Source: a phage
NCBI GenBank assembly: GCA_018093385.1
Contig: GCA_018093385.1_4808.1
Direction: 5' to 3' (one strand)
DNA length: 64,000 nt
Shown: positions 3,200 to 62,994 of the stretch, piece after piece
How positions within the stretch are numbered: the first letter of the stretch is position 1
Layout of the letters: the number at the start of each line of letters is the position of its first letter
Notes under the pieces: model-generated
Database searches by the model: none
The model's input: only the letters and a program-made list of their open reading frames with translations
Told to the model about the DNA's origin: nothing
Made by a program: the position numbers and the translations under genes

Positions 3200-3219
3200 T
3201 ATCCTTCCGTTACTAATAG

Positions 3220-5579: not shown

Positions 5580-5660
5580 AAATCACCTCACTTGTTAACG
5601 TATAATGAGTATAACTTAATTGCGCATAAAGTAAAGGCGCTTTTCAGCGCCTTGAGTGAA

Positions 5661-15990: not shown

Positions 15991-16020
15991 ATTCATCGGC
16001 AAAGGATTGCCGCGAGTTTT

Positions 16021-16300
16021 ATACGTATAATGACGTATCATCCGTATCAAGTAAGTTGTTGTTTTCAAAAGAATCTTACGGATGATACGGATGATACGCA
16101 TTGCCGCCGTACTATATAGGAATTCAAATAAATTAATTTAAAATTATATATCTAATTTAATTTTATTTTTTTATAAACTCTTATATATGAAAAGTATCCG
16201 TATCATCCGTATCATCCGTAGCACACCAGTGATAGCGCGGCTTATACACCGATACGGATAAAAATACGCCTCATTTTATCCGTATCATCCGTATCACACT
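16021..16300. repeat. Iteron-like element copy B: inverted repeat CGTATCATCCGTA (16034-16046) / TACGGATGATACG (16077-16089), AT-rich core (16100-16190), direct ATCCGTATC repeats (16195-16221, 16278-16295)
   Basis: Read directly; identical arms and spacing to 84-140. Confidence 0.8.
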
Positions 16301-16352
16301 AATAAAGGCGCGGCTATATCGGTCGTTATACATATTCAAACCATAATTATTG

Positions 16353-16382
16353 TTTGCCTAAGTTTTTTTCATTAGATATAAT
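16353..16382 (+). promoter_or_regulatory. Promoter TTTGCC-N18-TATAAT upstream of scaffold/capsid genes
   Basis: Hexamers followed by GAGGGTGG SD. Confidence 0.45.
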
Positions 16383-16411
16383 ACACAATACTTATTTGAG
16401 GGTGGATGCGA

Positions 16412-25117: not shown

Positions 25118-25615
25118 ATGGTCAATATTAGTGGATTTGGCACAAGCATTAGAATTGTCGCTCTTCAATCTTTTCCTGTTGGGCTGAATATCAGTTCTTT
25201 GTCTGATGACCAGGATTCGCTAATTATTGAGGAAGTTGAATCAGTAGGTTATCAACTTACTTATGACGGCGGCATTTGCATATACGACAAAGCCGCCGTC
25301 GTTCGCGTATCCATTGCGGTCATTCCAAACACTGAAGATGACATAAATCTTAAGCTTTTATTATCTGCCCGTAAAGGTGGATTCAAGTGGTTGCCAATTC
25401 AGGATGTGACATCGATGCTCATTACATATCCTGACGGTGGAAGGGTGGCATTCTCTAACGGAACGATAATCAGCGGTCCGCTTGGTGACTCCATAGAGCA
25501 ATCAGGCCGTCGCAAGACAAACCGATACACATTTGTGTTTGCCAGCTACGGTGGCGCACAGAGCACGTCTCAAGTTGCCAAGGGCGTGGTGCAGAGCATA
25601 TTGGGGTCCATTTAA
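25118..25615 (+). CDS. Tail tube-like protein, paralog 2
   Basis: Homologous to 23700-24167 product. Confidence 0.5.
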   Translation: MVNISGFGTSIRIVALQSFPVGLNISSLSDDQDSLIIEEVESVGYQLTYDGGICIYDKAAVVRVSIAVIPNTEDDINLKLLLSARKGGFKWLPIQDVTSMLITYPDGGRVAFSNGTIISGPLGDSIEQSGRRKTNRYTFVFASYGGAQSTSQVAKGVVQSILGSI

Positions 25616-30711: not shown

Positions 30712-30715
30712 AATA

Positions 30716-30744
30716 TTGCTTATAGACTCCTTATAGATTATAAT
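30716..30744 (+). promoter_or_regulatory. Internal promoter TTGCTT-N17-TATAAT before baseplate genes
   Basis: Hexamers followed by AGGAG SD. Confidence 0.4.
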
Positions 30745-30768
30745 TTGTTGATCAGATATAAGGAGTCT

Positions 30769-31497
30769 ATGATGGCAGAGAAGTTAACTCAACTTACAAG
30801 CCCCAACCAAACTGACAAATCAAGTATGTTTGCCGCGCTGCAGGGAATGCTGGACCGTGGCAAGTATACCACTGACGGCATGATTCCTGCACAAGTAATA
30901 TCTTATGACCGCAAACAGAATTTAGCAGTCATAAAGCCTGTTATTCATTTCGTAAGTCTTGATGATAAACCAGTGGAGCGTCAACCTCTGGTGTCAATTC
31001 CTGTATTGGCAATCGGCGGCGGCGGCTTTGTAATCAACTTTCCTTTGAAAGAAGGTGATTTGGGCTGGATATTCGCTGGCGACCGCGAGTTGTCGACATT
31101 CCTTGAAGAATTGAAGCCGACCGCGCCCACCAATGGTCGCGCGAAAACTTTCGCTGATGGACTGTTCATACCGGATGTATTTCGAAAATACACCATAAGC
31201 GGAGAGGATGCAGGCTCAATGGTAATTCAGTCCCTCAGCGGCGCTGTACGAATTGCATTAAGTGATGACTCGATAAACATAACCGCATCAGCTGGGGTAA
31301 ACGTGAAAACACCAATCACCACTATCGACCAACAACTGATAGTGAATGGAAAGGCAACATTCAATGGTGGTATAGAAGGGAAAGAAGGAACGACGGCAAC
31401 GCTTCCGACTGGCACCACAATCGGCGGCACAAATGTATCCACTCACGGGCACATAGGTAACGGACCTGGAAACAGAACTGGGGATATGATAGAATGA
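30769..31497 (+). CDS. Baseplate spike/assembly protein (gpV-like, putative)
   Basis: OB-fold-like N-region; start at ATG after AGGAG (ORF track 30745). Confidence 0.45.
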   Translation: MMAEKLTQLTSPNQTDKSSMFAALQGMLDRGKYTTDGMIPAQVISYDRKQNLAVIKPVIHFVSLDDKPVERQPLVSIPVLAIGGGGFVINFPLKEGDLGWIFAGDRELSTFLEELKPTAPTNGRAKTFADGLFIPDVFRKYTISGEDAGSMVIQSLSGAVRIALSDDSINITASAGVNVKTPITTIDQQLIVNGKATFNGGIEGKEGTTATLPTGTTIGGTNVSTHGHIGNGPGNRTGDMIE

Positions 31498-38756: not shown

Positions 38757-38832
38757 TATAATTCACCTTTTGATTACGAATATTAATAGTATAGGCCGAA
38801 GGTTTTGAAAGTAAATAAGGCGAAAGGTAAAT

Positions 38833-38860
38833 AAAAGAAAAGCCGGAGATTTCCGGCTTT
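38833..38860 (-). terminator. Rho-independent terminator after ligase gene (GCCGGA-GATT-TCCGGC, U-run on minus strand)
   Basis: Stem plus A-run on plus strand. Confidence 0.65.
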
Positions 38861-38932
38861 ATGTATACACTGTATGTTAAATTCTATAAAACGACGCGAT
38901 AGATTATCCGCACCAATTATTTATCTAGTGTC

Positions 38933-42810: not shown

Positions 42811-42842
42811 TTTGTATTCCTCTGTTTCGTTTCGATGAAGTA

Positions 42843-42871
42843 ATTATGACTCATCTTCCGTGACAAGTCAA
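42843..42871 (-). promoter_or_regulatory. Promoter TTGACT-N17-CATAAT; shares about 30 bp with the promoter at 49676-49704
   Basis: ttcgtttcgatga(a/g)gtaa(t/a)tat(g/a)actcatc present at both sites. Confidence 0.45.
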
Positions 42872-42884
42872 ATTATTTTTGATA

Positions 42885-44827: not shown

Positions 44828-47711
44828 CTGGATACACCTGTTTGATCACGTCAACGATGAACATATCAATGCCTTCAAGCTTGCGACCTTTCATCAGGAA
44901 GAATGCGCCGTTCCCGACGTTTTCAGCGATGTACTTCCCGTACTTCTGGAACTTCTCTGGACGAATCCTGAAGCGCATTGGCGAGTCGGTCGAGTCGTCT
45001 TTGCACATAAGGTCGATGAACTGAGTCTCAAGCTTGTTCCCGTACTGGTCAAACTCTGCGTAGCGGCCATCAGCTTGAAGACCCTTTTTAAGCTTGCCGT
45101 GCTTTGTATAGATGCCGCGCTCAAGTCGTTTACGGATGCGTGTTGCTTCGTTCTCGTCCGCAAGCACTTTCTTTGTCAACTTGCCGATTACTATTGCGCG
45201 CTCGTCATCACCGACTTCCTTCATCTGGCGTATTGAAGCGCCGGACGTCACACCAATCAGATACGGGTCATTATACGCCCAGCCGAACTTTGTGTGCATC
45301 TCTGTAAGGTCGCCGTATTTTACTTCAGCATTGGCCAATGCGTCCTTTTGCTTCTGCGTTAAGGTTCCGGCTTCACGCGCTTCGATATACTTCATCGCTT
45401 TCACCATGCCGTACCCTTTCGCATTCATGATGCCGCCGATTAGCTTTCCGTTCGCGATGGTCCAGTTCATTGAAGAGTGATCAGGGTCGATTGGCACATA
45501 ATCCACACCTTCCTTCGCAAGTTCACGTAATATCGCAATCGTCTGGTCTTCGTCCTTAGCAGCGCGTAAGCAGGCTGCGGCAAATTCCAACGGGTAGTGT
45601 CGCTTAAGCCACAAGGTCCAGTAGGTCACGACCGCGTATGACACGGAGTGTGACTTGTTAAAGCCCCATGACCCGAACGTGGCCATCGCTTGCCAAAGCT
45701 TTCTTGCATCCGCTTCCGGTACGCCGTTATTGATTGCGCCTGCAACAAAGTCCTCGCCAAGCTTGTTAAAGTATTCTTCACCCTTACGGCCTGACATCGC
45801 CTTACGCACAGCTGACGTTTTCGCCCAGTCAAATGAACCAATCTCTTTAACCACGGCCATGATTTGCTCTTGGTAAAGAAACACGCCGTAAGTCTCTTTC
45901 AAGTACGGCTCAAGCTGCGGCACGTCGTACTCAATCGGCGCACGTCCTGCCGCGCGTTCAATGTATTTCTGGGCCATACCGGATGACAACGGGCCAGGTC
46001 GACCCAAAGCTGTCAGGTTGTCGATTTTGTTAAAGTTGTCGACGTGCACAAAGTTTGTTACTGAGCGTACAGCATCACCTTCAAACTGGAAGATGCCTGA
46101 CATCTTGTTTTCGTTAAGAATGTCAAGGACGCTTTGATCATCAAGTTTGATTCCGTAGAGCGTTTCAGCATCAATAACGCCTGTATCAGAAATAATGCCG
46201 AGAGTACGAAGGCCCAGCGCATCAAGCTTCAAAAGGTTGAGGTATTCACTGTCAGGCTTATCGATTTGCGCAATCCCTTCTGCAGTTACAGTACAGTAAT
46301 CAGAGATTGGGTCATTACACACAATGATGCCCGCTGCGTGAACACCTGTGTGAGACGGGTGAATCTCAAGGTCACCCATGCAACGCGCGGCGTCAGGATA
46401 TTTCGCCACGAACTCTTGGCCCGTGGTCGTTGTTGCAAAGGTATCCTCCAGGCCGTGACCATAACGGGCGTCACCGGATGAGTATTCAAGCAATGCGTTT
46501 TTAATGTTGGCCGTTTCGTGGTATCCAATGTTGAACTTCTTACCAACCTGCGCCATTACTGAGTTGGCCTTAAGAGTGTTGATGTTGCCAAGCTTCGCAA
46601 CGTTCATTTCGCCGTATTTCTCTTTAAGATAATCAAACACCATATAGCGTTTGGTATCTTCAAAGTCGATGTCGATGTCAGGAAGGTCGGCGCGGCTTAC
46701 GTCGATGAATCGGGCAAACAGCAGCTTATACGGGATTGGGTCCACTTCCGTGATGCCGAGGCAATAGCAAACAAGTGAACCGGCCGATGAGCCGCGAGCA
46801 GGACCGACGAGCATTTTTGTTTTTGCGAATCGTACAAGGTCCGCTACTACCAGAAAGTATGAGTCGAAATCTTTCAGCTGAATCTGGTGAATTTCTTCGT
46901 TGAAGCGGTCCTCGTATTCCTGAGTCCATTCTTTGATGTGACCTGCTTTTAGACGGTACTCCATGCCCTCGCGAGCAAGCTTTACCATGTCACCAGCAAG
47001 TTGAATAATCGGTGCCTTACGCAATTTCAGGTCAAGTCCGACTATGCCGTTTGCTATGTCAACAGCATTGGCCGTTGCCTGATTGAGCTCGTCTTCAGTC
47101 AAGATGCCTTTAAGCTGTTTGCGCAAGTCTTCCGAGTCAACGATGCAGTGCGGCTTGACCGTGTCGCGCACTTCCCAAGCATAAGCGAAGTCAACGTGCT
47201 CAGGAGAAGGCATGTGATTGTATCCGGTTAAAACCAGCGGCCTTCCGTTGCTGCGGTGAGCCAACACCTGGCGCTTAGCCAAAAGGAACGACGATGGGTT
47301 GACGTCTATATAGTCGTAGTCCTCTGGCCGCAGCAGCTCCACGGCACCGCCACAGAATTTAACGACGCCATCAAGCGCACCGAACTCTGCACGGGTAAGC
47401 CCACCGCGCTGCGTTGAAAGTGTTGTAGCGTTGTAAAAAGATTTTAAGTCAAGGGCCAATATCCAAGCCTTCGGTTTGAATCCCTTTTTAGGGTCCGCAT
47501 CAGGGTCGATGATTGGAATCTCCATTCCAAACATAGGCTTAATATCATTTTTCTGGCATTCCTTTTCCCAGCGAACGTGACCCCATGTGTTGTTATCAAC
47601 TAATGCCGCGACTTCGCAGCCCAACTCTTTGAGCCGTGCTATAATTTCAGGATGCCGTCCATAAACTTCTTTGAACGTGTAACCGCTGCGAACTCTCAAT
47701 TGTGGAAACAT
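44814..47711 (-). CDS. dnaE: DNA polymerase III alpha subunit-like replicative polymerase (DnaE-like, PHP domain)
   Basis: 965 aa; PHP-like N-terminus, DIDIDFED segment, polymerase core. Confidence 0.75.
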   Translation of the reverse strand: MFPQLRVRSGYTFKEVYGRHPEIIARLKELGCEVAALVDNNTWGHVRWEKECQKNDIKPMFGMEIPIIDPDADPKKGFKPKAWILALDLKSFYNATTLSTQRGGLTRAEFGALDGVVKFCGGAVELLRPEDYDYIDVNPSSFLLAKRQVLAHRSNGRPLVLTGYNHMPSPEHVDFAYAWEVRDTVKPHCIVDSEDLRKQLKGILTEDELNQATANAVDIANGIVGLDLKLRKAPIIQLAGDMVKLAREGMEYRLKAGHIKEWTQEYEDRFNEEIHQIQLKDFDSYFLVVADLVRFAKTKMLVGPARGSSAGSLVCYCLGITEVDPIPYKLLFARFIDVSRADLPDIDIDFEDTKRYMVFDYLKEKYGEMNVAKLGNINTLKANSVMAQVGKKFNIGYHETANIKNALLEYSSGDARYGHGLEDTFATTTTGQEFVAKYPDAARCMGDLEIHPSHTGVHAAGIIVCNDPISDYCTVTAEGIAQIDKPDSEYLNLLKLDALGLRTLGIISDTGVIDAETLYGIKLDDQSVLDILNENKMSGIFQFEGDAVRSVTNFVHVDNFNKIDNLTALGRPGPLSSGMAQKYIERAAGRAPIEYDVPQLEPYLKETYGVFLYQEQIMAVVKEIGSFDWAKTSAVRKAMSGRKGEEYFNKLGEDFVAGAINNGVPEADARKLWQAMATFGSWGFNKSHSVSYAVVTYWTLWLKRHYPLEFAAACLRAAKDEDQTIAILRELAKEGVDYVPIDPDHSSMNWTIANGKLIGGIMNAKGYGMVKAMKYIEAREAGTLTQKQKDALANAEVKYGDLTEMHTKFGWAYNDPYLIGVTSGASIRQMKEVGDDERAIVIGKLTKKVLADENEATRIRKRLERGIYTKHGKLKKGLQADGRYAEFDQYGNKLETQFIDLMCKDDSTDSPMRFRIRPEKFQKYGKYIAENVGNGAFFLMKGRKLEGIDMFIVDVIKQVYPDGNK

Positions 47712-48253
47712 TATTTACTCCAGATGTCATATACGCCAATTTGTTGGCAGACTTTGTGCAGTAATATTACGTCGTCTAATGCACGGTGCTTCTGTTCATA
47801 TTTTCCGAAATATAATTCATACAGCTCTTGAAGCTTAACTCTTCGGCCAAAAATAGGCAAGGTTTGCTCAACTGTACATATGTTTATTTCTGGAAAATTA
47901 ACATCATCAAGCGTAAGTCCTTCGCGCTGTAGTGCATAATCAAGAATGTTTTTATCGAACGCATGGTTGTGCGCGATAGTTGCATCAGTCTTCTTGAAGA
48001 TTTCTTTTAGCTGCGGGACGAAATTGATGAACGGTGGATTGCACTCAAGGTCTTCATTTGTTAATCCGGTAATCTTTGTGATGATTTCTTCGATCACGAT
48101 TTCAGGATTAATTATGAATTCAAACGTTTCAAGAATCTCTTTGCCGTCTGTCAGCAAGCCTGCAAATTCAATAGGGCGCGGCTGCATTCCAAGCGGCGCT
48201 TTCGGGTGCACGGTTAATCCGGTTGTTTCGAAGTCATAAGGGAGAAATAACAC
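47711..48253 (-). CDS. DnaQ-like 3'-5' proofreading exonuclease (GTG start)
   Basis: Exo motifs YDFETTGL, HNHAFD, HRALDD; AGGAGG SD. Confidence 0.75.
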   Translation of the reverse strand: MLFLPYDFETTGLTVHPKAPLGMQPRPIEFAGLLTDGKEILETFEFIINPEIVIEEIITKITGLTNEDLECNPPFINFVPQLKEIFKKTDATIAHNHAFDKNILDYALQREGLTLDDVNFPEINICTVEQTLPIFGRRVKLQELYELYFGKYEQKHRALDDVILLHKVCQQIGVYDIWSK

Positions 48254-48263
48254 ATTGGCCTCC

Positions 48264-48292
48264 TACAAAAAGGCCGCCCATTAGGACGGCCA
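48264..48292 (-). terminator. Rho-independent terminator between the enzyme island and the exonuclease gene
   Basis: GGCCGTCC-loop-GGGCGGCC followed by TTTTTG on minus strand. Confidence 0.55.
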
Positions 48293-48307
48293 CAGATTCA
48301 CGATTCG

Positions 48308-48859
48308 TTATACAGTGTACGGAGTACCGTCTTGATTTAAGCGCACGATAAACTTCAAATCAACGCCGATGATTTCACGCGTATCAAAGATCACATAGTT
48401 GTAACGACGTTGACCAGCAATGTTCGGGTTGGTATGAGAGTCAGTTACAACTTCCTGTGCAACCTGAATACCTTCTTCGCTAAAGAACTTACGCCATTCA
48501 GCAAGTTCAGCGGCAGTCACGTGCATACCAAGGTGGCTGACCTGATTGTCATGCGCATCGATATATTCGATGTTTTCGTTAATCCAGTTGCAGCCCATTG
48601 TGTAGTCAAGGATTTCAAGCTCAAGAGGCTTACCAGCGCCGCCATCAGTACCGTTGCCAGCCTGATAGTTGAAGCGCAAGTCAGCTTCATTGGTGCAATC
48701 GTCGCGACGACCTTTAAAGTCATCAGCTTCAAATACGCGACCAGTAGCAACAACATGATCATGGAACCATTCTGTCAGGCCGATTTTAGCCAAGAAATCC
48801 TGTGCGCGCTGAGCATCTGGAATTGACAGGGCGATTTGTTCAATTTTAAAATGTGGCAT
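48308..48859 (-). CDS. VOC-fold (glyoxalase/dioxygenase-like) protein, putative
   Basis: Two beta-alpha-beta-like modules; weak motif-level call. Confidence 0.35.
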   Translation of the reverse strand: MPHFKIEQIALSIPDAQRAQDFLAKIGLTEWFHDHVVATGRVFEADDFKGRRDDCTNEADLRFNYQAGNGTDGGAGKPLELEILDYTMGCNWINENIEYIDAHDNQVSHLGMHVTAAELAEWRKFFSEEGIQVAQEVVTDSHTNPNIAGQRRYNYVIFDTREIIGVDLKFIVRLNQDGTPYTV

Positions 48860-48955
48860 TTTGTTTCCTTAATTAAATATTATTGATTAATTACTGTGTT
48901 GTCTTCGTCCTGTTTCTTTTCAGGAGCGGGTGTGACAACTTCAAATGTTCGTGAT

Positions 48956-49639
48956 TTATTTACCAAATGGAATATCAGTACCAGACATAAAGCGCCATGC
49001 GCCTGTAATTAAGATATGGCGAATGAAGTCAGCAATTACTTGCGGCTCAGTCTCCAATCCATTCATCAATGCCTTTTTCTGGTATTCAGCGGCGTATTCA
49101 GGAGTCCAGCCGCGAGTCGCGCAAACTGCATCTTCAATCTGTTTAGACATGCCAGTGCCGCGCAACTTGTTAGGACTAATAGAGAATACCGTGATGCCGT
49201 ACTTAGGCGTAAGTTCGTGAGCCATCTGCTTGCTGATCATAAGCGCAGCGGCCTTGGATGCATTATAACACAAGCTGGACGTCATAGGAATATGCGCAGC
49301 GTTGGAAACGATGTTGATCACAAAGCCTTTGTTGTCGATAAGACTTTTCAGCGCAGCCTGAGTCGTGTTAACGAAAGAGAATGCGTTGGTGTGCATAACG
49401 CGGTTAAACTCTTCATAGTTTACATCTTCAAACCAATTGTTAGAGTTGACACCAGCACAGTTGATCAAGCCTTCAACATCATATGGGCTTAAAATTTCTT
49501 TCATCTGTTTAGCATCGCGGACGTCATATCCGTATGCTGAATCGATGCCAAGCACGTTATGACCGTAAGCGCCAAGGGTGTCAAAAATAGATTTACCAAG
49601 ACCGGAATTGGAACCTGTTACAACAATTACTTTTTTCAT
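48956..49639 (-). CDS. Short-chain dehydrogenase/reductase (classical SDR)
   Basis: TGSNSGLG, NCAG, YNASK motifs. Confidence 0.7.
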   Translation of the reverse strand: MKKVIVVTGSNSGLGKSIFDTLGAYGHNVLGIDSAYGYDVRDAKQMKEILSPYDVEGLINCAGVNSNNWFEDVNYEEFNRVMHTNAFSFVNTTQAALKSLIDNKGFVINIVSNAAHIPMTSSLCYNASKAAALMISKQMAHELTPKYGITVFSISPNKLRGTGMSKQIEDAVCATRGWTPEYAAEYQKKALMNGLETEPQVIADFIRHILITGAWRFMSGTDIPFGK

Positions 49640-49660
49640 TTATTTATCCTTTTTGGACTT

Positions 49661-49704
49661 CGTTTCGATGAGGTAAATATAACTCATCGAAACGCACAAG
49701 TAAA
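49661..49704 (-). promoter_or_regulatory. Promoter TTTACT-N17-TATATT with 12-bp perfect inverted repeat (49661-49672 / 49683-49694) centred on the -10
   Basis: Read directly on minus strand upstream of SDR gene. Confidence 0.5.
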
Positions 49705-50580
49705 CTATTTATTGAAATTAATATTATGGGTGTTTACAAGACGTTCACACATGGCGCTATAAACACCATCGTCGTGTATTGAGTCTTCGTGCTTCAGGCC
49801 GCTGATTGCGAAGCGTGTAAGCTTGACAATCTTAAGCTCGAACAGATGCCACATGTGGTAGTCTTCCGGTGTTTTCAGCGTCACGCCATTAGGGAACAGT
49901 ACCTGCATAACCTGACCTACCATCACAGCGTTATCGCCATAGACAGCGTTGCGCTCACGGAAGGTCGCGGCCATCGCATCAAGAATATCGGCGGCGGTTG
50001 CTGGGCCTTGTGGTTCAACTTCAACAACTTTAGTCTCTTCTTTCCCTGTTGCGCTTGGATCAACTGCTAATTGCTGCACCATTTCACCTGCCTTGCAAAG
50101 ATTAAATGTAAAAGCGATTTTATTTTGAGCAACGGAATTATAATACAAGGCTTCATCTTGCATCGCCGCGAGTACGTCTTGTCGGTCGTCGAATACATTA
50201 ATGATTCGATAATCGCCGTGCCGCAAAGCGTGCGATAGCCATCCAGATTTCATAATAGTTGATGGACGTTTGTCGCCAGAGTCTCTCATCTTGATTGTAA
50301 ATTCATCAAAAGGGAAAACATTGTCCAGACGTTCAAAAGTCACTTGTCTGTATTTTTCTGGCCTTGCAGTCCAATATTCAACCGCCTCACCGCGAAGAGA
50401 TGCCGACTCTACTGCTGATGCAATGTGAGGATAGAACTGATCATAACCAATACCGCTGTGATAGTCATCATAGTCTGACAACGGACCTGCCACCTTGATG
50501 CGGTCTAAGCGCCAACGGTCATCAAACAGCGTTCCGTCAAGGTCGAATACGTTTAAGATTTCGCTGTTTTTAATGCTCAT
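49705..50580 (-). CDS. HAD-superfamily phosphatase-like protein with uncharacterised C-terminal domain
   Basis: HAD motif I DLDGTL near N-terminus. Confidence 0.5.
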   Translation of the reverse strand: MSIKNSEILNVFDLDGTLFDDRWRLDRIKVAGPLSDYDDYHSGIGYDQFYPHIASAVESASLRGEAVEYWTARPEKYRQVTFERLDNVFPFDEFTIKMRDSGDKRPSTIMKSGWLSHALRHGDYRIINVFDDRQDVLAAMQDEALYYNSVAQNKIAFTFNLCKAGEMVQQLAVDPSATGKEETKVVEVEPQGPATAADILDAMAATFRERNAVYGDNAVMVGQVMQVLFPNGVTLKTPEDYHMWHLFELKIVKLTRFAISGLKHEDSIHDDGVYSAMCERLVNTHNINFNK

Positions 50581-51380
50581 CCTTTTGATACTCCATCTTT
50601 AGCAACTGGATTGTTGGTGATTGGCATTGCACTCCAAAACTGGATGCGCAACTCTTCTTGCTGTGCCGTGGTATCCATCCAATCACGATACCAAGGGCAA
50701 TGGGCTTTGCCATGACGAGGAAACGCGCACTTACCCATACCGATGCACTGGGGCTGTAGTAAAGGATTGGCCCACGGGTGCACCTTAAGGACTTCCGCAA
50801 CCATTGCACGGAATACTTCTTGATACTCGCCTTGAGTACGCGTGCACAAGCGGTTAGAGGCCATTTGTTGCAGAGTGCGCAAGTTGAACTTTGCCATGAT
50901 ATGCGTTTGCATATTAGAAGGCAACACGGCACGTGCATCTTGAATCTCTGCGCCAGCCGCGCGAAGTTCTTGGTATAGGGCGTCAATGGTTGCCATTGCA
51001 TCATCCCATTTCTCTGCCAGTTCAGCAGCCTTCTCGTCATGACGAGTCCATCCCTTTGGATCATCCTCTGGGTAAGTAAATTTGGCAGGACGAATCGCAT
51101 CAAATGCTGACGACTCCTGAGCGCGGCTTGTGCGTTCTTGATATGCACCTGTGCGTGTGCGCACCATCTGATGAGTCATATTCTTTGATACATCAGTGAT
51201 GTCAAAGATATAGTCCACAAAGTCAAAAGGCGACTTGATTGTATCAAGCATGTAGCGCCAGTGCTCTTGCTTCTCTGATTCTGTCATCTCAGAGACTGGC
51301 TTACCAGTCATGCGCGTGTTCTTTGTTTCCAGCAAAAGGTCAAGTGCATCTTGGGTGTATCGAATTAATTCAACTTTCAT
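50577..51380 (-). CDS. thyX: Flavin-dependent thymidylate synthase (ThyX-like)
   Basis: VRTRTGAYQERTSR resembles the ThyX RHR...S...R signature. Confidence 0.55.
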   Translation of the reverse strand: MKVELIRYTQDALDLLLETKNTRMTGKPVSEMTESEKQEHWRYMLDTIKSPFDFVDYIFDITDVSKNMTHQMVRTRTGAYQERTSRAQESSAFDAIRPAKFTYPEDDPKGWTRHDEKAAELAEKWDDAMATIDALYQELRAAGAEIQDARAVLPSNMQTHIMAKFNLRTLQQMASNRLCTRTQGEYQEVFRAMVAEVLKVHPWANPLLQPQCIGMGKCAFPRHGKAHCPWYRDWMDTTAQQEELRIQFWSAMPITNNPVAKDGVSKG

Positions 51381-51393
51381 TTTAATTATCCTA

Positions 51394-51840
51394 TTAACGG
51401 TAATTCACTAGTTGCTGATCACCAGAGAAGGTGCAATGATAAACGAATTGTGCGTTATAAAGCAACTGAAAACTTTTCTTTGGTTCATTATTAGAACTCA
51501 TTGATGTAAAGATTTCTGCACCAGAACGGTTTTCACCAATCAGGTTAATAAAGCCGCCAGTTGAACGAGGCTGAACGAAAGTGAAACGCTGCATCCACGG
51601 AGTCCGGTTGGCACCTTTTCCGGTGAATCCCTGAATCTGAATATTCAGACCTTCTTGCTCGTTCACACCGATGTAAGTGGTAATTGTTGCGCCAGTCGTC
51701 GCTGCGGTCTTGCCGTCCATCGCTTCGCAATCGTAAACAGCGATTGAATCGGAAGTACGGACAGCGGCTTCAGTCGCTTCCATATACATGGTTCCGAGAA
51801 TAGCAGTCGCGGCAAGCGCGATTCCAGTGATGCGTTTCAT
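51394..51840 (-). CDS. Secreted protein of unknown function
   Basis: Signal peptide MKRITGIALAATAILGTMYMEATEAA; AGAGGAAA SD. Confidence 0.5.
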   Translation of the reverse strand: MKRITGIALAATAILGTMYMEATEAAVRTSDSIAVYDCEAMDGKTAATTGATITTYIGVNEQEGLNIQIQGFTGKGANRTPWMQRFTFVQPRSTGGFINLIGENRSGAEIFTSMSSNNEPKKSFQLLYNAQFVYHCTFSGDQQLVNYR

Positions 51841-51858
51841 TTTCGTTTCCTCTATGAG

Positions 51859-51905
51859 TTCTGCTTCAATGATTAAAGTATACGCCCATTGAAGCAGAAA
51901 GCAAA
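51859..51905 (-). promoter_or_regulatory. Promoter TTTGCT-N17-TATACT with 13-bp perfect inverted repeat (51859-51871 / 51887-51899) flanking the -10
   Basis: Read directly; same architecture as 49661-49704. Confidence 0.5.
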
Positions 51906-52901
51906 TTATTTATTAGCAATATAAGCAAATTTTTGATAGTTATTTGCTTTGATGAGTTTTTCAACTTCAGCAAGGTCATGAGCGACGTCATCAAGCAAAA
52001 TGTTTCGCCAAGTAGCGAATCGACCGACACTAAATACGTTCAAATCCATAGTCAACTGGAGCAGTAAGGCGTGGCGCAAGTCTTTCGGAATGTCGACAAT
52101 TTTGCCATACTTCTGGTCAACCTTTTCAACTTCTTCCAAAGAGATGTCATTCCATGAAAGACCAAAAGCGGTAAGAACTTCATCCACTTCTGCACGCAGC
52201 TTCATGTCGCGATAACGGGTAATGCCGCCAGCGGCTTCAACTGCTGCCGCGCTGACGCTTACCAATGGAATTGTTTCAATGATCAGCGTGTCACCAGTGA
52301 TTGATGCGCGGTAAGTCCTTACAGAATAGTCAGGGAAGTAAATTGTTTGATAAAGTTCACACTTGCGCTTAATCTTAAAACGATAAACGCGAATATTTGC
52401 CTTATCAAACGAGAAGTCGAGCTTTTGATCAATACCAGCAAGCTTCATCATGACTGGCAGCGGCGATGTGTTGATGATTGGCGTCTCGCTATAGCCGCAA
52501 AGCGTGTCGACCGGAGTATTAAAGAATATACGGTCACCCAGTTTATCGACAAGTTGATCATAAAAGTCATCCGGCGCTATGTAGCGCGTAGCAGTTTGAA
52601 GCTTCATGATTGAGCGGCTGCCAAACTGGTTGGTGACTTTCATAGAGTACATATTGGCAAGGTTAATCGGGCAGTGGCCGTGATAGTAGTTGCCACGAAA
52701 ATACACAGCCTTATCGACTGTCACGGCCTTAAAGGGGATTCCGGTAATACGGCTTACTTCTTCGCCGCGAAATCGTAGCAGCGCCTTGTGCTGCGCGACG
52801 CGTTCGCCTGCTTCGTACACAATAGAGTTCGGAAAGTGACAAGCCGTGATAAGTCCTGCCAGTCCGCCGCCGATAATCATTACAGGTTGTTTCATGTTCA
52901 T
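51906..52901 (-). CDS. FAD/NAD(P)-binding oxidoreductase (UDP-galactopyranose mutase / amine-oxidase-like fold, putative)
   Basis: N-terminal Rossmann IIGGGLAGL; C-terminal GRFATWRNILLDDV resembles the family tail. Confidence 0.5.
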   Translation of the reverse strand: MNMKQPVMIIGGGLAGLITACHFPNSIVYEAGERVAQHKALLRFRGEEVSRITGIPFKAVTVDKAVYFRGNYYHGHCPINLANMYSMKVTNQFGSRSIMKLQTATRYIAPDDFYDQLVDKLGDRIFFNTPVDTLCGYSETPIINTSPLPVMMKLAGIDQKLDFSFDKANIRVYRFKIKRKCELYQTIYFPDYSVRTYRASITGDTLIIETIPLVSVSAAAVEAAGGITRYRDMKLRAEVDEVLTAFGLSWNDISLEEVEKVDQKYGKIVDIPKDLRHALLLQLTMDLNVFSVGRFATWRNILLDDVAHDLAEVEKLIKANNYQKFAYIANK

Positions 52902-52978
52902 TTGTCCTTTGTGGGTGATATGATAAGTATAATAGCTAAATTATCTTACAGCAACAAGTCATTTTATTTAGTACAGAC

Positions 52979-53006
52979 GAAAAAAGACCCACAACTAGTG
53001 TGGGTC
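52979..53006 (-). terminator. Rho-independent terminator (GACCCACA-loop-TGTGGGTC, U6 on minus strand)
   Basis: Perfect 8-bp stem and AAAAAA on plus strand. Confidence 0.7.
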
Positions 53007-53034
53007 AATTACCGCTACATAACCGTCCTAGAGG

Positions 53035-53877
53035 TTATTCTGCTTGATCGTCGTGCTCTTCGGCATCTGCTTCGGATTCAACATCGATGAACTCGATGTG
53101 GCCCATCTCTTCCAGTTTGCTCAGGTAAGAGCGAACTGAAGCGCCAAACAGCTGATCTTTAACTTTTTCACCCAGCTCGTCGATAGACTGCGGCTGACCG
53201 ATTTCACCTTCTTTGATCGCAGCCAGTACGCGACCACGGGTGGAATGTTCTTGCGGCTGGCTCAGGCCGTTTCCGGTGTAAACAAAGTGAGTTGCTTTAG
53301 CGCGACGCTGACCATTAGCTTTCTTGGCGGCTTTACGCTCTGCAATCGCTTTGCGACGCTCTTCAGCTTCTTTCTTACGCTGTTCTTTCTGTTGTTCTGC
53401 AGCTTCTTTCGCCGCGATCTTAGCAGCTTCACGCTCTGCCTTGCGTTTCGCTTTCGCTTCTTCTTTAGCCTTTTCTTTTTCGGCTTTCGCTTCTGCACGG
53501 GCCTGATCACGTTCAGCCTTTTTCGCCGCAGCTTGTTCAGCTTTCAGGCGCTTGGCTTCTTCTTTCGCCTTTGCCTTTTCAATTTCTTTAGCGGCTTTAG
53601 CGGCTTCACGCTCTGCCTTCTTAGCAGCAGCCTTTTCAGCACGCTCTGCAGCCTTCTTAGCGGCTTCTTCAGCACGCTTCTGAGCCTTCTCGTCAGCAGC
53701 CTGCTTGCGTTTCAGCGCAGCTTCTTCACGCTTGGCTTGTTTTTCCTGCTCACGCTTCTGGCGTTTTTCTTCGGCTTCTTTCTTTTTAGCCAGGCGTTTT
53801 TCTTCAGCCACGCGACGACGTTCTGCTGCGGCTGCTTGTTTTTCTTCTTTAGATAATACTTTGATTGCTTCGGCCAT
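53035..53877 (-). CDS. Lys/Ala/Glu-rich low-complexity protein with globular C-terminal domain
   Basis: About 190 aa of KAE repeats then about 85 aa of normal composition; ATG 53877 has AAGGA SD (ORF track 53883 is GTG). Confidence 0.5.
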   Translation of the reverse strand: MAEAIKVLSKEEKQAAAAERRRVAEEKRLAKKKEAEEKRQKREQEKQAKREEAALKRKQAADEKAQKRAEEAAKKAAERAEKAAAKKAEREAAKAAKEIEKAKAKEEAKRLKAEQAAAKKAERDQARAEAKAEKEKAKEEAKAKRKAEREAAKIAAKEAAEQQKEQRKKEAEERRKAIAERKAAKKANGQRRAKATHFVYTGNGLSQPQEHSTRGRVLAAIKEGEIGQPQSIDELGEKVKDQLFGASVRSYLSKLEEMGHIEFIDVESEADAEEHDDQAE

Positions 53878-54036
53878 ATTCACAGTCCTTAAATAAATTA
53901 GTTTATTTTATATTCCCCGTTTGGGATAACTTAATTATGCCTTCAGTCGCCGCCAGTAGCAACTAAAAACTATGGCGGCAATGCCACTTTAATTAAACTG
54001 ATTTTCAGTTTTATTTTTCGTAAATTTACGTCAACA

Positions 54037-55221
54037 TTAACGCGCTTTCAAATCACGGTACACGGTCAGATTCTTCTTAGCACGGGTGATAGCGGTGTAC
54101 ATCATCTTGGAGTACGGAACGCCGCGCAAGATTTCTTCCAGCACGCACACATTGTCCCACTCGCTGCCTTGCGATTTGTGCACCGTGATGACATAGCCAT
54201 AATCCATCCCGCCAACAGCGCGTTGGGCCTCTTTGCGCACTTCCTGATCAGTAGAGAAGGAAAGAGGATTAATCTTAACCTTTATATCTTTGCCATCGGT
54301 AAGCGAGCGCAAATTGACATACATGATTTCATTGGACTCGTCTTCGTCCCTTTCAAAGTCCGGCACTGGCTCATAGCTAATAACAATCCCTTGCTCGCCA
54401 TTACAGAATCCTGGCCCGTGCTGGTTGAAGGTGCAAATAACTTTCTCGCCGATTCCTGGCATTGGCGTTATACGTCCGCTCACTTGCCGTAATAATGAAT
54501 TCCATTTATCTTTGGTGCTATTATAGGAGCAAATAATTTGATCATCTTCGCCCATGAATTTCTTCAATGCAGTAACGCGCGGCGATTCTGCCAATACTTT
54601 GACGTCATCGTATTCACGCGGAGGAAGGCGGTTGCCTTGGCGCACGAAGAAGGAGGCGCGGATTATATTGGACTCTTTCCCTTGCCGCATGATTTCTGTT
54701 AACAGTACGTCAACGGCTTCTTCGGTAAAGTAGGCGGCGGCTTTTACCGGAGGGACTTGTCCAATGTCGCCTAATGCCAGCACAGGGATGCGGTGATCAA
54801 GAAGGCGCTCTGTGTCCCACTCGCCAACCATCGACGCTTCATCGAGTACAACAAGGTGCGGCCTTTCGTCCAGTTTTGACTTTCTCGAAAAGATTGGCTC
54901 ATTGTCGTCATTTACGCCGCGCACGTTATAGATGAACTGGTGAAGGGTCTTAGCGCCACGACAGCCTTTTTGCTTTAATCGGCTTGCAGCCTTTCCGGTC
55001 GGCGCAATATAGATAGCGCCGTACTCACCGACACAGCGGCGCACAATCTCGCGAGCAATAGAGGTTTTACCAGTCCCTGCATAGCCAGCGATGAAAAACA
55101 CGCGCTTCGTCGTTTTACCGTCCTGCAATCGCTTGTACCATGCAACGGCTTTCTCGATGGCGTCGATTTGTTGCGCGTTAAACTGAATCACTGGCTCATC
55201 ATTAAATTCTGGAATGTTCAT
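54037..55221 (-). CDS. SF1B helicase (Dda/RecD-like)
   Basis: Walker A GYAGTGKT, Walker B VVLDEASM, GDIGQVPP, TVHKSQGSEWD. Confidence 0.8.
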   Translation of the reverse strand: MNIPEFNDEPVIQFNAQQIDAIEKAVAWYKRLQDGKTTKRVFFIAGYAGTGKTSIAREIVRRCVGEYGAIYIAPTGKAASRLKQKGCRGAKTLHQFIYNVRGVNDDNEPIFSRKSKLDERPHLVVLDEASMVGEWDTERLLDHRIPVLALGDIGQVPPVKAAAYFTEEAVDVLLTEIMRQGKESNIIRASFFVRQGNRLPPREYDDVKVLAESPRVTALKKFMGEDDQIICSYNSTKDKWNSLLRQVSGRITPMPGIGEKVICTFNQHGPGFCNGEQGIVISYEPVPDFERDEDESNEIMYVNLRSLTDGKDIKVKINPLSFSTDQEVRKEAQRAVGGMDYGYVITVHKSQGSEWDNVCVLEEILRGVPYSKMMYTAITRAKKNLTVYRDLKAR

Positions 55222-55547
55222 TATAACTCCACTACGCTTTCAAGGTCCAGATATACTGGAATAAAATGGCAATCTTCTTTTCGTTCAAACATCTCACCAT
55301 CAACATGGCTGAAGAAAACAGTTGTGTTTGGTATCTTCCATCCTTTCTCGTCGCGCACTAAGTACGCCATGGATTCAACAGGGATGTACAGCGATACCGG
55401 ATTTGCGGCAAAAATAAATTTGATTCTGTCTGGTTGACCCAGGAATCGCATGATTGTCAGGCTTGAATTCAATCTTGTATTAAGGAAGGACTCAACGATT
55501 CCGACGTGTGTTGCACGTTCGCGTTGCTTCGTCTCTTTTTCGTTCAT
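55221..55547 (-). CDS. Hypothetical protein
   Basis: 108 aa, ATGA-coupled to helicase. Confidence 0.45.
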   Translation of the reverse strand: MNEKETKQRERATHVGIVESFLNTRLNSSLTIMRFLGQPDRIKFIFAANPVSLYIPVESMAYLVRDEKGWKIPNTTVFFSHVDGEMFERKEDCHFIPVYLDLESVVEL

Positions 55548-55585
55548 TTCAGGCGACCTTTGTTAGTGCGGAAATATTTTCTGAT

Positions 55586-55614
55586 AGTATAATTGCAGAT
55601 ATAGTATAAAGCAA
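55586..55614 (-). promoter_or_regulatory. Promoter TTGCTT-N17-TATACT
   Basis: Divergent intergenic region. Confidence 0.45.
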
Positions 55615-55650
55615 AGTAAATCGAAATTGTGAACTAAATGGTAAATATTG

Positions 55651-55678
55651 TTGACTTTGTATCACTCAATATTATACT
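55651..55678 (+). promoter_or_regulatory. Promoter TTGACT-N16-TATACT upstream of primase-polymerase gene
   Basis: Hexamers followed by AAGGAAAG SD. Confidence 0.5.
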
Positions 55679-55707
55679 GCAGGTATTGATCACCGAAGGA
55701 AAGAAAG

Positions 55708-56790
55708 ATGGCTAGTTTAAGAGAAGAAGCAAAAATAATTGAAGAGTTTTTAACAGAACTCCAAAGAGGCATCCCAGAAGATGAGCGCGTCATGACGGTG
55801 TTTGCTCCTGAAGCAACGGTGCAGACTGATGAGCGCGGCAAGAAGATCAACAGCAGCTTCTGGCCTAAGCCTTGGAAGTTGGGCAAGCCGCTCATGCAGC
55901 ACCAAAACGGCTATGCGTGCATCAGTTCAATGCGTAAGGCTCCCAACCCAAAGACGGGTGAGATGCGATACTGGCGTACAGAGTCAGCCTTTGGTCACGG
56001 CATGGCGATGATGGTCGACGACATCGGTCACGGTAAAGGGTCCAAAGGCGATTTAGATTTGGAATTCTTTTTTGAGCGACTGAAGCCGACTGTCATCGTC
56101 GAGACTTCACCGAACAATCACCAGCTTTGGTACTTCTTTAAAGAACCGATTGACCATCTTATTCAGTTCAAAGCGTTCCTTGGGTCTTTCGTTAACATGG
56201 TACTCAAGAAGGGCGGCGACAACACGATTAAAGACGTAACGCGCGTGGGTCGTGTTCCTGGGTGCATCAACAACAAGCGTGTGACTCACGACGGCCCCTA
56301 TAAATATGTCGATGAGAACGGCGACCCGTTCCGCTGCCGACTTGTCCATGCAGACTACTCATTGCGCTACACCATCGAAGACATTTGTCAGGCATTTGGC
56401 TTTCACGTCGTCATGCCGCAAAAGCGTGAAATTCAAATTGACGTTGATGAATACAAATACGACGCTGTTTGGTATAAGATAGCCCAGCAAATCCTTGCGC
56501 GCAATAAGATGGGCGAGGGGTCTGATGGCGATGTTGTTGAAAACATGTCGGGCAAGTGCCGCATCATCTGTCCTTGGGGTGAAGAGCATACCAACGGCGA
56601 CCCGTATGGCGCTTACTTTCGCGGCCCTATCCCTGGTGCAGAACATGAGTTTGTGTTCGGTTGCGCTCACGACTGTCACCGGAAAGGGGAAGGCAAGAAA
56701 GGTTGGACTGCTTTTGTTGAAGCAATCGTCATGCCTTATATTGAGAATCAACTTGACATGATAAATCGTCGTGCAGGTGGCATAAAATAG
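55708..56790 (+). CDS. Primase-polymerase (archaeo-eukaryotic primase-like) with Cys/His-rich C-terminal region
   Basis: Motifs MVDDIG, SPNNHQLWYFF, RVPGCINNK; C-terminal CPWGEEH...CAHDCH. Confidence 0.6.
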   Translation: MASLREEAKIIEEFLTELQRGIPEDERVMTVFAPEATVQTDERGKKINSSFWPKPWKLGKPLMQHQNGYACISSMRKAPNPKTGEMRYWRTESAFGHGMAMMVDDIGHGKGSKGDLDLEFFFERLKPTVIVETSPNNHQLWYFFKEPIDHLIQFKAFLGSFVNMVLKKGGDNTIKDVTRVGRVPGCINNKRVTHDGPYKYVDENGDPFRCRLVHADYSLRYTIEDICQAFGFHVVMPQKREIQIDVDEYKYDAVWYKIAQQILARNKMGEGSDGDVVENMSGKCRIICPWGEEHTNGDPYGAYFRGPIPGAEHEFVFGCAHDCHRKGEGKKGWTAFVEAIVMPYIENQLDMINRRAGGIK

Positions 56791-56848
56791 TTTGCTTTTA
56801 TTTTCATAGCAACTATAATCATTTTATGAACTGAAGCAGAGGTGATTC

Positions 56849-58100: not shown

Positions 58101-59771
58101 ATGTCAATTAATAATGACAATCTTCCAGAGGATACAGGTGATGAATTTGGTGCAATCTTTGACGAAATTCAAGATGCAGGCGTTTCGGAAGAAATGCAGG
58201 CAGCAGAGCAGCAAGGCACCAGAGCTAAAATCAGCCTTCAACATAAAGCTGTTGAAAAAGATTCAGAGCGCATGGAATGCTACGGTGAAGAAGACTTGGT
58301 TGAAAGAGCACGCTTGCTCGCCTCACTTCAGGTAATCAAGTTCCCTCACTACAAGCCTACCAAAGATGACTTCGTTCTACAGGCAGACCGGACGAGTGAC
58401 ATGAACCGTTATGCGGTGTTCGACGCGTTGTTTGATAAGGGAAGTGGCGTCGTTCCATTCCCTCACAAAGATACTTTTCGTGGGCGCTTAGTCGACCATC
58501 GCGGCGAAACATTCACCGACCGTACTTTGGAAGTCACAGAGATAGTTGCCGCTGTCGACGCAGCAGGATTGTCCAACCCAAACTCACGTCAGGTCGCTCA
58601 ATCCTATAAGGAATGGGCCATGCGTTATCAGCGCGACGACCTGATGGACTTCTTCTACAAGAAGCTGCCTGAATGGGACGGTACTGCGCGCATCGAGAAA
58701 TACCTTATCGAGCTATTCCGACCGTTCGATACAGAGTTAAACCGACAAATCGGTGTGTATTTTTGGCTATCGCTCTACAACCGCCTGACCAACCCTGGCT
58801 GTCAAGCGCCAATCTCCATCGCGCTCATCGGCGGCCAGAATGCAGGGAAGAGTTATTTTAGCAAGCTGCTTTGCGAAGCTATTATGAACGACCGCCACGC
58901 AACACCGATTCCGTTGAACTTAGCCGCGCAAAACTTCAACCCGTTCTTGCGAGCTATTACGGGTCGCTCAATTATCGCGAACGTTGGCGAGATGACAGGC
59001 TTTAAAAAGGCCGACATCGAAAACATGAAAGCATTCCTGACTAAGACGGAAGATGACCTGGACTTCAAATTTGAAGATACGCAGGTTAAACCACGCCAGT
59101 GGATTGCTATCATGGACGGCAACGAATACGCAGGCATGCAGCGTGATGACACGGGCAACCGTCGTGTGTACCCTATCTTTGTTGGCCAACTCGCCGACAA
59201 GGACGGGCAACCGAACTGGTCGAAAGATTTCCAAGCTGACCTTTCCACTTTGAAAGAAGACGTTTGGCAGTTGATGGCTGAGTGCGCTGCATGGATGGAG
59301 AAGCACGGCGAAGCAGGTTACAATGCATTTGTTGGTGAAACATCTCGCATGCTTACTGAGTTTAGTAAGAACGAAATGGAACGTGCGCGCGGCGTTATTC
59401 GTGATGAGATGGTGGACAACGACCTTGTTGAAGTCGTCATCACCGCGCCTTATGACCGACATCACAGCGGACGCTGGCACATCACCAGTGGTGCTATTGC
59501 TATGGGATTCAGAGCGAAGTGTGGCAAGTCGCCTTTCTCTCGTACCCTTGCGCCGCACATGTCGAAGCTTGGTTTTGAGCCTGCAACCTATCGCAACCAG
59601 CGCGGGTACTTTACGCCGCTGATTAAGAATGAAGCAGGAGAATACATTTCTGATTTGATGACCATCTTAGCGTATCTTATCCGCGATGAGTCTGACCCTG
59701 AAGATATTGAATTCTTGAAGAAGGTTATTGAGCGTAAACGTTCTTTGGGAAGAGATAAGGATGAATTCTGA
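58101..59771 (+). CDS. VirE-like P-loop NTPase (primase-associated helicase-like)
   Basis: Walker A LIGGQNAGKS; GGAGG SD; follows primase-polymerase gene. Confidence 0.55.
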   Translation: MSINNDNLPEDTGDEFGAIFDEIQDAGVSEEMQAAEQQGTRAKISLQHKAVEKDSERMECYGEEDLVERARLLASLQVIKFPHYKPTKDDFVLQADRTSDMNRYAVFDALFDKGSGVVPFPHKDTFRGRLVDHRGETFTDRTLEVTEIVAAVDAAGLSNPNSRQVAQSYKEWAMRYQRDDLMDFFYKKLPEWDGTARIEKYLIELFRPFDTELNRQIGVYFWLSLYNRLTNPGCQAPISIALIGGQNAGKSYFSKLLCEAIMNDRHATPIPLNLAAQNFNPFLRAITGRSIIANVGEMTGFKKADIENMKAFLTKTEDDLDFKFEDTQVKPRQWIAIMDGNEYAGMQRDDTGNRRVYPIFVGQLADKDGQPNWSKDFQADLSTLKEDVWQLMAECAAWMEKHGEAGYNAFVGETSRMLTEFSKNEMERARGVIRDEMVDNDLVEVVITAPYDRHHSGRWHITSGAIAMGFRAKCGKSPFSRTLAPHMSKLGFEPATYRNQRGYFTPLIKNEAGEYISDLMTILAYLIRDESDPEDIEFLKKVIERKRSLGRDKDEF

Positions 59772-62909: not shown

Positions 62910-62994
62910 ATATCAAAAAGGTGAGCTAAATGCTTGCCTTTTCTTTTATCAATACTTATACTCTTTTCATCAAGACTAACAAGTGAGGTGAATT

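Follow-up and report, generated by a model that had tools for sequence, protein, structure and literature searches.

A predicted sigma-70-type promoter nested in a perfect inverted repeat ahead of the ThyX unit of a Wifcevirus phage, and its possible role as an RNA hairpin

Contig GCA_018093385.1_4808.1, a stretch of 64,000 nucleotides of phage DNA from the Wifcevirus group (the window in what follows), carries at 51859-51905 a predicted minus-strand promoter whose -10 hexamer is enclosed by a perfect 13-bp inverted repeat, directly ahead of a unit encoding a 148-amino-acid protein (p148), ThyX and a phosphatase. The inverted repeat is not a chance feature. It is proposed, with modest confidence, that the site is a composite cassette in which an internal host sigma-70 promoter is nested in a hairpin that acts as RNA. 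The design is best filed with the promoter/stem-loop cassettes already known from T4-like phages, of which the site at 51859 would be a member in an unrelated myovirus lineage, and not as a new operator.

The predicted promoter at 51859-51905 and its mapped counterpart in phage 14-1

On the plus strand, TTCTGCTTCAATG (51859-51871), attaaagtatacgcc (51872-51886) and CATTGAAGCAGAA (51887-51899) form an inverted repeat of 13 bp without mismatch, the arms standing 15 nt apart. Read along the minus strand, the gap runs TTTGCT, TTCTGCTTCAATG, GGCG-TATACT-TTAAT, CATTGAAGCAGAA, CTCATAGAGGAAACGAAA and ATG, with 17 nt between TTTGCT (51905-51900) and TATACT (51882-51877), and the dyad and promoter together fill the whole 65-nt gap between the minus-strand genes at 51906-52901 and 51394-51840 (Table 1). 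Between the stem and the ATG there are 18 nt, and between the stem and the Shine-Dalgarno sequence GAGG 6 nt; the fold has an energy of -19.1 kcal/mol (z = -3.9). A first-pass annotation of this DNA had described a perfect 13-bp dyad around TATACT together with TTTGCT-N17, and direct reading of the sequence confirms both. It had further placed the whole of TTTGCT-N17-TATACT between the arms, which is right for the -10 hexamer and wrong for the -35 hexamer, as the latter sits outside the dyad on its 5' side and the spacer is taken up by the 5' arm. The matching architecture with different arms that it had pointed out at 49661-49704 is there as well (12-bp arms, 10-nt loop, TTTACT-N17-TATATT). 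No Rfam covariance model matched positions 47000-56000 on either strand at E values up to 1.

The start sites of Pseudomonas phage 14-1 (Pbunavirus) have been mapped by ONT-cappable-seq (Putzeys et al. 2024, PMC10914365), and those used here are from Table S3 of the bioRxiv supplement; a distant kinship between Wifcevirus and the Pseudomonas Pbunavirus is reported in the BASEL paper (PMC11990801). Promoter P028 of 14-1, of the sigma-70 type and with its start at 49234 on the minus strand, is located directly downstream of gp66, the homologue of the gene upstream of our site (p331), and upstream of the ThyX-containing unit, and is thus syntenic with the site at 51859. The two align without gaps, with 26 of 44 columns alike from -35 to +8; TTTACT pairs with TTTGCT and TAATAT with TATACT, and the aligned columns include TGGGCGTA as well as the TCA whose A is the mapped +1. 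Because the mapped start of P028 aligns there, A 51870 is the predicted start of the Wifcevirus promoter. The ungapped alignment and the synteny with an experimentally mapped promoter support well the earlier description of 51859 as a promoter, to which we assign the p148-ThyX-phosphatase unit.

The CTTTACTT motif at -35 is common to many mapped 14-1 promoters and is also present in intergenic gaps of the window, where TTT(G/A)CTT-N16/17-TATA(A/C)T recurs in the orientation of the downstream gene; five promoters of the window and 14-1 P028 align ungapped over about 50 nt. Two motifs recur beyond the hexamers: TCATCGAAACG at 49661-49672, in the 42811-42884 gap (42823-42835) and in 14-1 P028 (L025), and TGAAGCAGA at 51859-51868 and in the leader of the 56791-56848 gap (56834-56842). 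They may stem from promoter duplication or represent a leader element. A T4 MotA box was considered for TTTGCTT and dropped, as the motif occupies the -35 position with a 16-17-nt spacer rather than -30 and has its counterpart in the TTTACTT of mapped 14-1 sigma-70-type promoters. The resulting promoter model, TTT(A/G)CTT-N16/17-TATAMT followed by a TCA at whose A transcription starts, is anchored on the mapped 14-1 starts and should be transferable.

The 4 kb around the site is 92-96% identical to 29 records of Wifcevirus (Escherichia/Shigella phages), myoviruses with genomes of 66-72 kb, the nearest being VerenaGrendelmeier_Bas101 (Bas101 below) and vB_EcoM_WFC. The 65-nt gap at 51859 is identical in 26 of these 29 records, and all 65 of its positions are invariant among four complete genomes, versus 75% of the flanking third-codon positions; for Wifcevirus intergenic DNA overall, 94% of positions are invariant versus 72% of third-codon positions. 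The few variants at the dyad sites fall mostly in loop and leader, as in TH35, in which two loop bases outside the hexamer are altered. Two variants in the arms at 49661 (Bas99, Bas101) replace C by T, with G.U pairing retained in the minus-strand RNA, while the change in ECP_WGS_SA1 is not G.U-compatible. No indel polymorphism was seen at the dyad promoters among the 29 genomes.

Perfect dyads around promoters: RNA hairpin or DNA site

The 64 kb contain five perfect dyads with arms of 12 bp or more and loops of 3-30 nt, versus a mean of 0.125 (standard deviation 0.33, maximum 1) in 40 dinucleotide-preserving shuffles, an excess of about 40-fold. All five are intergenic. Those at 16034 and 16251 are part of a cluster of 9-mer iterons and were set aside for that reason. 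In the other three, at 30722, 49661 and 51859, the arms flank a -10-like hexamer, and 17 nt upstream of it stands a -35-like one. When the 20 nt upstream of the -10 hexamer were compared with the 24 nt downstream of it at 17 promoter-like sites, the longest complement was 12-13 nt at these three sites versus 3-6 nt, the chance level, at the other 14. Three complete relatives contain the identical set of dyads of at least 12 bp and none further; the extras are two 11-bp dyads.

The iterons belong to a 415-nt non-coding gap between structural genes (15991-16405), in which the 9-nt units ATCCGTATC / TACGGATGA occur in both orientations, produce the 13-bp dyads at 16034 and 16251 and flank a strongly A/T-rich core at about 16120-16190. 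Bas101 carries a matching partial copy of 46 nt at 59104-59149, in sequence for which no counterpart was mapped in the window. In appearance the gap suggests an origin of replication or some other protein-binding array.

The sister site at 49661 occupies a second 65-nt gap, upstream of a FabG-like gene (a 'moron'). At the third site, 30722, 10 nt separate the stop codon of the upstream gene from the 5' arm, and AAGGAG falls in the 3' arm, as do the first two letters of the baseplate-spike gene's ATG (30772-30774). Opening of its Shine-Dalgarno sequence is computed to cost 15.6 kcal/mol in read-through RNA versus 1.4 in the promoter's own RNA, and translational coupling on read-through RNA is also possible there. 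The syntenic counterpart of this site is 14-1 P018, whose mapped start (28318) lies in the loop of a hairpin with a 3' arm that spans the Shine-Dalgarno sequence to the ATG of gp42; P018 is active in E. coli as well as in P. aeruginosa (PMC10914365). The baseplate-spike junctions of Serratia phage KKP 3709 and Burkholderia phage BcepF1 repeat the logic of P018 and 30722 with different sequences. In the three dyad promoters of the window, arms of 12-14 bp, A/U-rich as RNA, enclose loops of 10, 15 and 21 nt.

We infer that the dyad acts as an RNA hairpin of the sense transcript, and not as an operator or a cruciform, because the arms of the three dyad promoters are unrelated (TTCTGCTTCAATG, CGTTTCGATGAG and ATAGACTCCTTATA), the distances between arm centres differ (28, 22 and 35 bp), the hairpin shifts its register to the promoter in relatives and has G.U pairs there, and the 3' arm at 30722 is made of AAGGAG and the AT of ATG. 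The suggestion of the first-pass annotation, of a pair of operators that might serve different regulators or else of a structural element in the DNA, finds no support for these same reasons. A heptamer, TTCRATG / CATYGAA, is common to 51859 and 49661; outside it the arms are wholly different yet complementary. We ascribe it to a common initial-transcribed motif, since it is also found in dyad-less promoters, namely that of the 42811-42884 gap (w42811) and 14-1 P028. In these paralogous promoter cassettes the 3' arms are conserved initial-transcribed motifs, and the 5' arms are spacer sequences that are their perfect complements.

The same junction in relatives offers a view of how the hairpin moves. 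KKP 3709 has an 8-bp G+C stem in the spacer that overlaps the -10 hexamer of TTGACG-N17-CATAAT, a relative from IMG/VR (50% protein identity) has a 16-bp stem with G.U pairs and the -35 hexamer in its 3' arm, and one further lineage has a G+C hairpin without a promoter. Hairpins at the syntenic junctions in relatives fold at -26.0, -16.5, -23.1 and -10.1 kcal/mol on the sense strand versus -19.5, -12.8, -18.2 and -7.8 on the opposite strand, and the sense-strand advantage of the relatives' hairpins, 2-6 kcal/mol, is due to G.U pairs. A metagenome scan with an alignment of p331 returned four loci and nothing new. The KKP 3709 record (L026, OR067833.1 38000-62000) probably carries many frameshift errors, its matches to the polymerase cluster falling in several frames and its DNA polymerase being annotated in pieces, and its intergenic sequences need care.

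An operator, on which a dimeric phage or host regulator would bind both arms and occlude the -10 hexamer, with different arms for different regulators, is quite unlikely. Symmetry that is perfect, Watson-Crick only and centred on the -10 hexamer would suit it, as would the strong conservation of the site and the similar centre-to-centre distances (22 and 21 bp) of TTCRATG...CATYGAA at 51859 and 49661, and a 69-amino-acid 'transcriptional regulator' is annotated, in ECML-117 only; yet up to three regulators would be needed for three sites whose spacings differ, and the shared half-site and spacing that mark the operators of regulated promoters are not found at the three sites. The heptamer is present as an initial-transcribed motif at w42811 and P028, where there is no dyad, and complementarity alone accounts for its mirror image in the 5' arm. 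Complementarity is kept where the arms differ completely, and the hairpins of relatives lie off the -10 hexamer, in the spacer or over the -35 hexamer, with G.U pairs.

Cruciform extrusion is disfavoured by loops as long as these, of 10, 15 and 21 nt, which counts against a structural role of the DNA, in which supercoiling would extrude a cruciform with the -10 hexamer in a single-stranded loop and switch the promoter off or on with topology during infection. The perfect Watson-Crick stems of 12-14 bp and the A/T-rich spacers would lend themselves to extrusion, the spacer would correspond roughly to the region melted in the open complex, and Horwitz and Loeb (1988) reportedly engineered an E. 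coli promoter regulated by cruciform extrusion. The homologous structures of relatives, though, depend on G.U pairs and lose stability on the opposite strand, their register to the promoter is not conserved, and the Shine-Dalgarno sequence and ATG in the 3' arm at 30722 are an RNA feature; we regard a cruciform as very unlikely.

Proposed role of the hairpin and known promoter/stem-loop systems

In the RNA-hairpin cassette that we favour, TTTGCT-N17-TATACT would drive the p148-ThyX-phosphatase unit from A 51870. Since transcription would begin within the 3' arm, downstream of the 5' arm in the promoter spacer, RNA made from this promoter would lack the 5' arm and could not fold the hairpin; RNA arriving from the upstream gene would contain both arms and form the 13-bp stem. 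That the hairpin at 51859 would thus mark read-through RNA only is supported by the order of the elements. In 14-1, reads starting at P034 run through the P028 junction. Judged by the coordinates, the hairpins at both 65-nt gaps would be placed between the footprints of the terminating and the initiating ribosome. There the hairpin might form a boundary on the polycistronic RNA, as a decay barrier, a processing point or a weak attenuator, through which the upstream and downstream messages would be handled separately; this part of the proposal, reached by exclusion, is held with low confidence. An RNase III site was also considered, and the 13-bp stem is short for that enzyme. A terminator on the antisense (plus) strand was rejected, as 6-10 nt lie between the stem and the U-rich run on that strand, and the terminator scan has no entry for it.

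The hairpin could instead be a terminator or attenuator of the upstream gene that overlaps the next promoter, stopping most read-through and leaving the downstream unit dependent on its own promoter, as has been proposed for the promoter-early stem-loop (PeSL) cassettes of T4-like phages. The stem-loops of PeSLs lie between the -35 and -10 hexamers or over the -10 hexamer, and one of them cut lacZ expression as much as rrnB T1 (PMC2839356); the hairpin at 51859 starts just past the stop codon, and terminator hairpins abut promoters in the 5580-5660, 52902-53034 and 38757-38932 gaps of the window. This explanation is nevertheless unlikely, given a stem with none of the marks of an intrinsic terminator (detailed below), a scan that passes over 51859 and lists canonical terminators 1 kb away, and the comparable hairpin of 14-1 P018, at which no 3' end was mapped. 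A block to translation of p148 on read-through RNA, after the manner of T4 gene e and I-TevI, would mean that p148 is made only via its own promoter. The geometry of a promoter in a hairpin is alike in the T4 genes (PMC3014915), and the computed opening energies at 30722 would agree with such a block. At 51859, the stem stops short of the Shine-Dalgarno sequence, whose opening energy is alike in both RNAs (2.25 kcal/mol in the own RNA versus 2.45 in read-through RNA), as is that of -15..-4 and of -18..+12, a difference arising only if -25..-19 must also be single-stranded; a translation block is accordingly the least probable of the explanations considered for this site. The accessibility run at 49661 used a start at 49680, 11 nt upstream of 49669, an RNA that still lacks the 5' arm, so that the conclusion is unaffected. 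A bolder proposal, of a dedicated transcript-origin switch working through neither translation nor termination, seems to us rather improbable. In it, an RNA-binding or RNA-cleaving factor of phage or host would recognise the hairpin, so that read-through copies of the genes and copies from the internal promoter would meet different fates, or a cruciform would couple the three internal promoters to supercoiling of the template during the infection cycle of this phage, which is reported to be very fast (PMC11990801).

Several results weigh against the composite cassette. With regard to the promoter, the -35 hexamer TTTGCT matches TTGACA at only three of six positions, a consensus scan omits the site at 51859, and no literature on Wifcevirus transcription was found, the vB_Eco4M-7 paper just naming prediction tools. 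The P028 junction of 14-1 is without a hairpin, which is therefore not needed for promoter function. With regard to the action as RNA, the three Wifcevirus stems are all Watson-Crick (39 bp, no G.U) and equally compatible with a role at the DNA level. There are only four arm variants over the three sites in 29 near-invariant records, too few for covariation; two are G.U-compatible and two disruptive, the latter one at 51859 (in an unverified record) and one at 30722 (vB_Eco4M-7). With regard to function, the hairpin leaves Shine-Dalgarno accessibility unchanged at 51859 and 49661. At neither of the two does it resemble an intrinsic terminator. That at 51859 has a 15-nt loop, G-C pairs at five of 13 positions, an A/U-rich stem base and the tail ACUCAUAGAGG without a U tract; the terminator scan does not list the site, though it does list canonical terminators nearby at 53006-52986 and 48291-48272, and the lack of a mapped 3' end at P018 is to be counted here too.

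PeSL cassettes are known from the T4-like phages RB49/phi1, PST and nt-1 (Arbiol et al. 2010, PMC2839356; Comeau et al. 2014, PMC4122927). They combine an intergenic sigma-70 promoter, an upstream A/T stretch, a stem-loop at -35/-10 or -10 and the ribosome-binding site for the following gene, and their repeated copies flank accessory genes (PMC2839356). The site at 51859 resembles them in its sigma-70-like promoter with the A/T-rich AATAAATAA upstream, even if the -35 hexamer agrees only in part with the consensus, in its stable stem-loop with the 5' arm in the spacer and the -10 hexamer in the loop, and in the Shine-Dalgarno sequence and ATG at the 3' end of the motif (GAGG 51852-51849, ATG 51840). 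The likeness may extend to several alignable copies per genome that bound small gene modules, here the genus-specific p148 and the FabG 'moron'. However, Wifcevirus, with its kinship to Pbunavirus, is an unrelated group, only 3 of 17 promoters have the stem, and the stems are A/U-rich and perfect, of 12-14 bp with 10-21-nt loops, and are not polyG/polyC and are without terminator features.

Within the inhibitory mRNA hairpin of T4 gene e (lysozyme), and of I-TevI, there is a late promoter, located in the DNA for the hairpin's 5' strand or loop; the promoter's own RNA lacks the 5' strand, whereas RNA from upstream folds (PMC3014915). The predicted start of the 51859 promoter lies in the 3' arm and its own RNA would likewise lack the 5' strand, and 30722 and P018 fit this pattern fully; in contrast, the 3' arms at 51859 and 49661 exclude the Shine-Dalgarno sequence and start codon, and the promoter is of the host sigma-70 type instead of the T4 late TATAAATA. 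Since P028, syntenic with the 51859 promoter and homologous to it in sequence, differs in having no hairpin, the dyad at this junction appears to be specific to Wifcevirus and some other lineages. In T7, promoters are said to stand beside RNase III hairpins (among them phi1.3/R1.3, phi6.5/R6.5 and phi13/R13; Dunn and Studier, 1983). The likeness is an internal promoter and an intercistronic hairpin within a few tens of nucleotides, so that processed and new transcripts would have similar 5' regions; the difference is that the T7 stems are bulged, about 20 bp long, cut by RNase III and placed by promoters of the phage RNA polymerase, compared with a 13-bp stem here for which no cleavage is known.

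Wifcevirus phages are candidates for therapy and biocontrol. The analysis offers three internal promoters whose transcripts should be distinguishable from read-through RNA by the hairpin, and it removes a false lead, as there is no evidence for site-specific repressors at 51859. For annotation and engineering, the cassettes may be of use as compact 65-nt units of promoter, insulator and ribosome-binding site.

The site is located within a minus-strand cluster of replication and nucleotide-metabolism genes (Table 1). No homologue of p148 was found outside Wifcevirus in the phage collection and IMG/VR.

Table 1. Features of the three dyad promoters and of the genes around 51859; gene labels are the Bas101 annotation projected onto the window.
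Feature	Position	Strand	Remarks
Upstream gene, p331	51906..52901	-	331 amino acids, GxGxxG N-terminus, homologue of 14-1 gp66 (42% identity)
Downstream gene, p148	51394..51840	-	148 amino acids, genus-only, without Pfam match
ThyX	50577-51380	-	second gene of the p148-ThyX-phosphatase unit
HAD/PNKP phosphatase	49705-50580	-	third gene of the unit
-35 TTTGCT	51900..51905	-	directly after TAA of the upstream gene; aligns with TTTACT of mapped 14-1 P028
Alternative -35 TTGCTT	51899-51904	-	16-nt spacer
A/T-rich AATAAATAA	upstream of -35	-	within the last codons of the upstream gene
Hairpin 5' arm TTCTGCTTCAATG	51887..51899	-	occupies the -35/-10 spacer; starts 6 nt after the upstream stop codon
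15-nt loop GGCGTATACTTTAAT	51872..51886	-	holds TATACT (51882-51877) and a GGGCGTA motif common with 14-1 P028
3' arm CATTGAAGCAGAA	51859..51871	-	also predicted initial transcribed sequence; +1..+12
Predicted start A	51870	-	second base of the 3' arm, 7 nt downstream of -10; ungapped alignment to the mapped P028 start (A of CTCA/TCG)
18-nt leader CTCATAGAGGAAACGAAA	51841..51858	-	Shine-Dalgarno GAGG 51852-51849 outside the hairpin; ATG at 51840
Sister promoter -35 TTTACT	49704-49699	-	TTTACT-N17-TATATT
Sister 5' arm CGTTTCGATGAG	49694-49683	-	12-bp arms, 10-nt loop
Sister -10 TATATT	49681-49676	-	
Sister 3' arm CTCATCGAAACG	49672-49661	-	identical to the initial transcribed sequence at 14-1 P028 and at the promoter of the 42811-42884 gap, which has no dyad
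Sister predicted start A	49669	-	by alignment
Third site	30716..30774	+	TTGCTT-N17-TATAAT (-10 at 30739-30744); 14-bp arms 30722-30735 / 30757-30770
Baseplate-spike hairpin/promoter loci	window 30712-30774; L023 (14-1) 631-690; L022 (KKP 3709) 625-690; L024 (BcepF1) 660-712		

Other regulatory features of the window

Terminator hairpins abut or overlap promoters in five gaps of the window (5580-5660, 4277-4336, 62910-62994, 52902-53034 and 38757-38932), and in the 5580-5660 gap the T tract of GGCGCTGAAAAGCGCC-TTTACTTT doubles as a -35 element. Such compaction of terminator and promoter seems widespread in the genome.

An early-region cassette of about 85 nt is present in three copies (2301-2384 on the minus strand, 2407-2460 and 2799-2882 on the plus strand), two of them divergent. 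It consists of GTGCTTTACTT-N-TATAAT, ATATCGAGAGGGGATGAG and then the 5'-leader stem-loop GGTAGCGAATAGGTCGCTACC, and its -35 motif is that of the mapped 14-1 promoters. Close by, a region of 696 nt (3200-3895) that is unannotated in Bas101 holds four families of direct repeats, among them TCGCGTAAGTC(C/G)TTGTTTTATA(T/A)AG twice and AAATTTGCAGTACACT twice. At its position in ECML-117 and Ro157lw, a 69-amino-acid open reading frame is annotated, in ECML-117 as 'transcriptional regulator'. The region would lie inside or near the terminal repeat, because the Ro157lw record repeats its first ~3.5 kb at its end.

Positions 25265-25300, inside the coding region of a tail gene, hold a dyad of 9 bp, or 11 bp in Bas101, around a loop of 18 nt, reading GACGGCGGC atttgcatatacgacaaa GCCGCCGTC.

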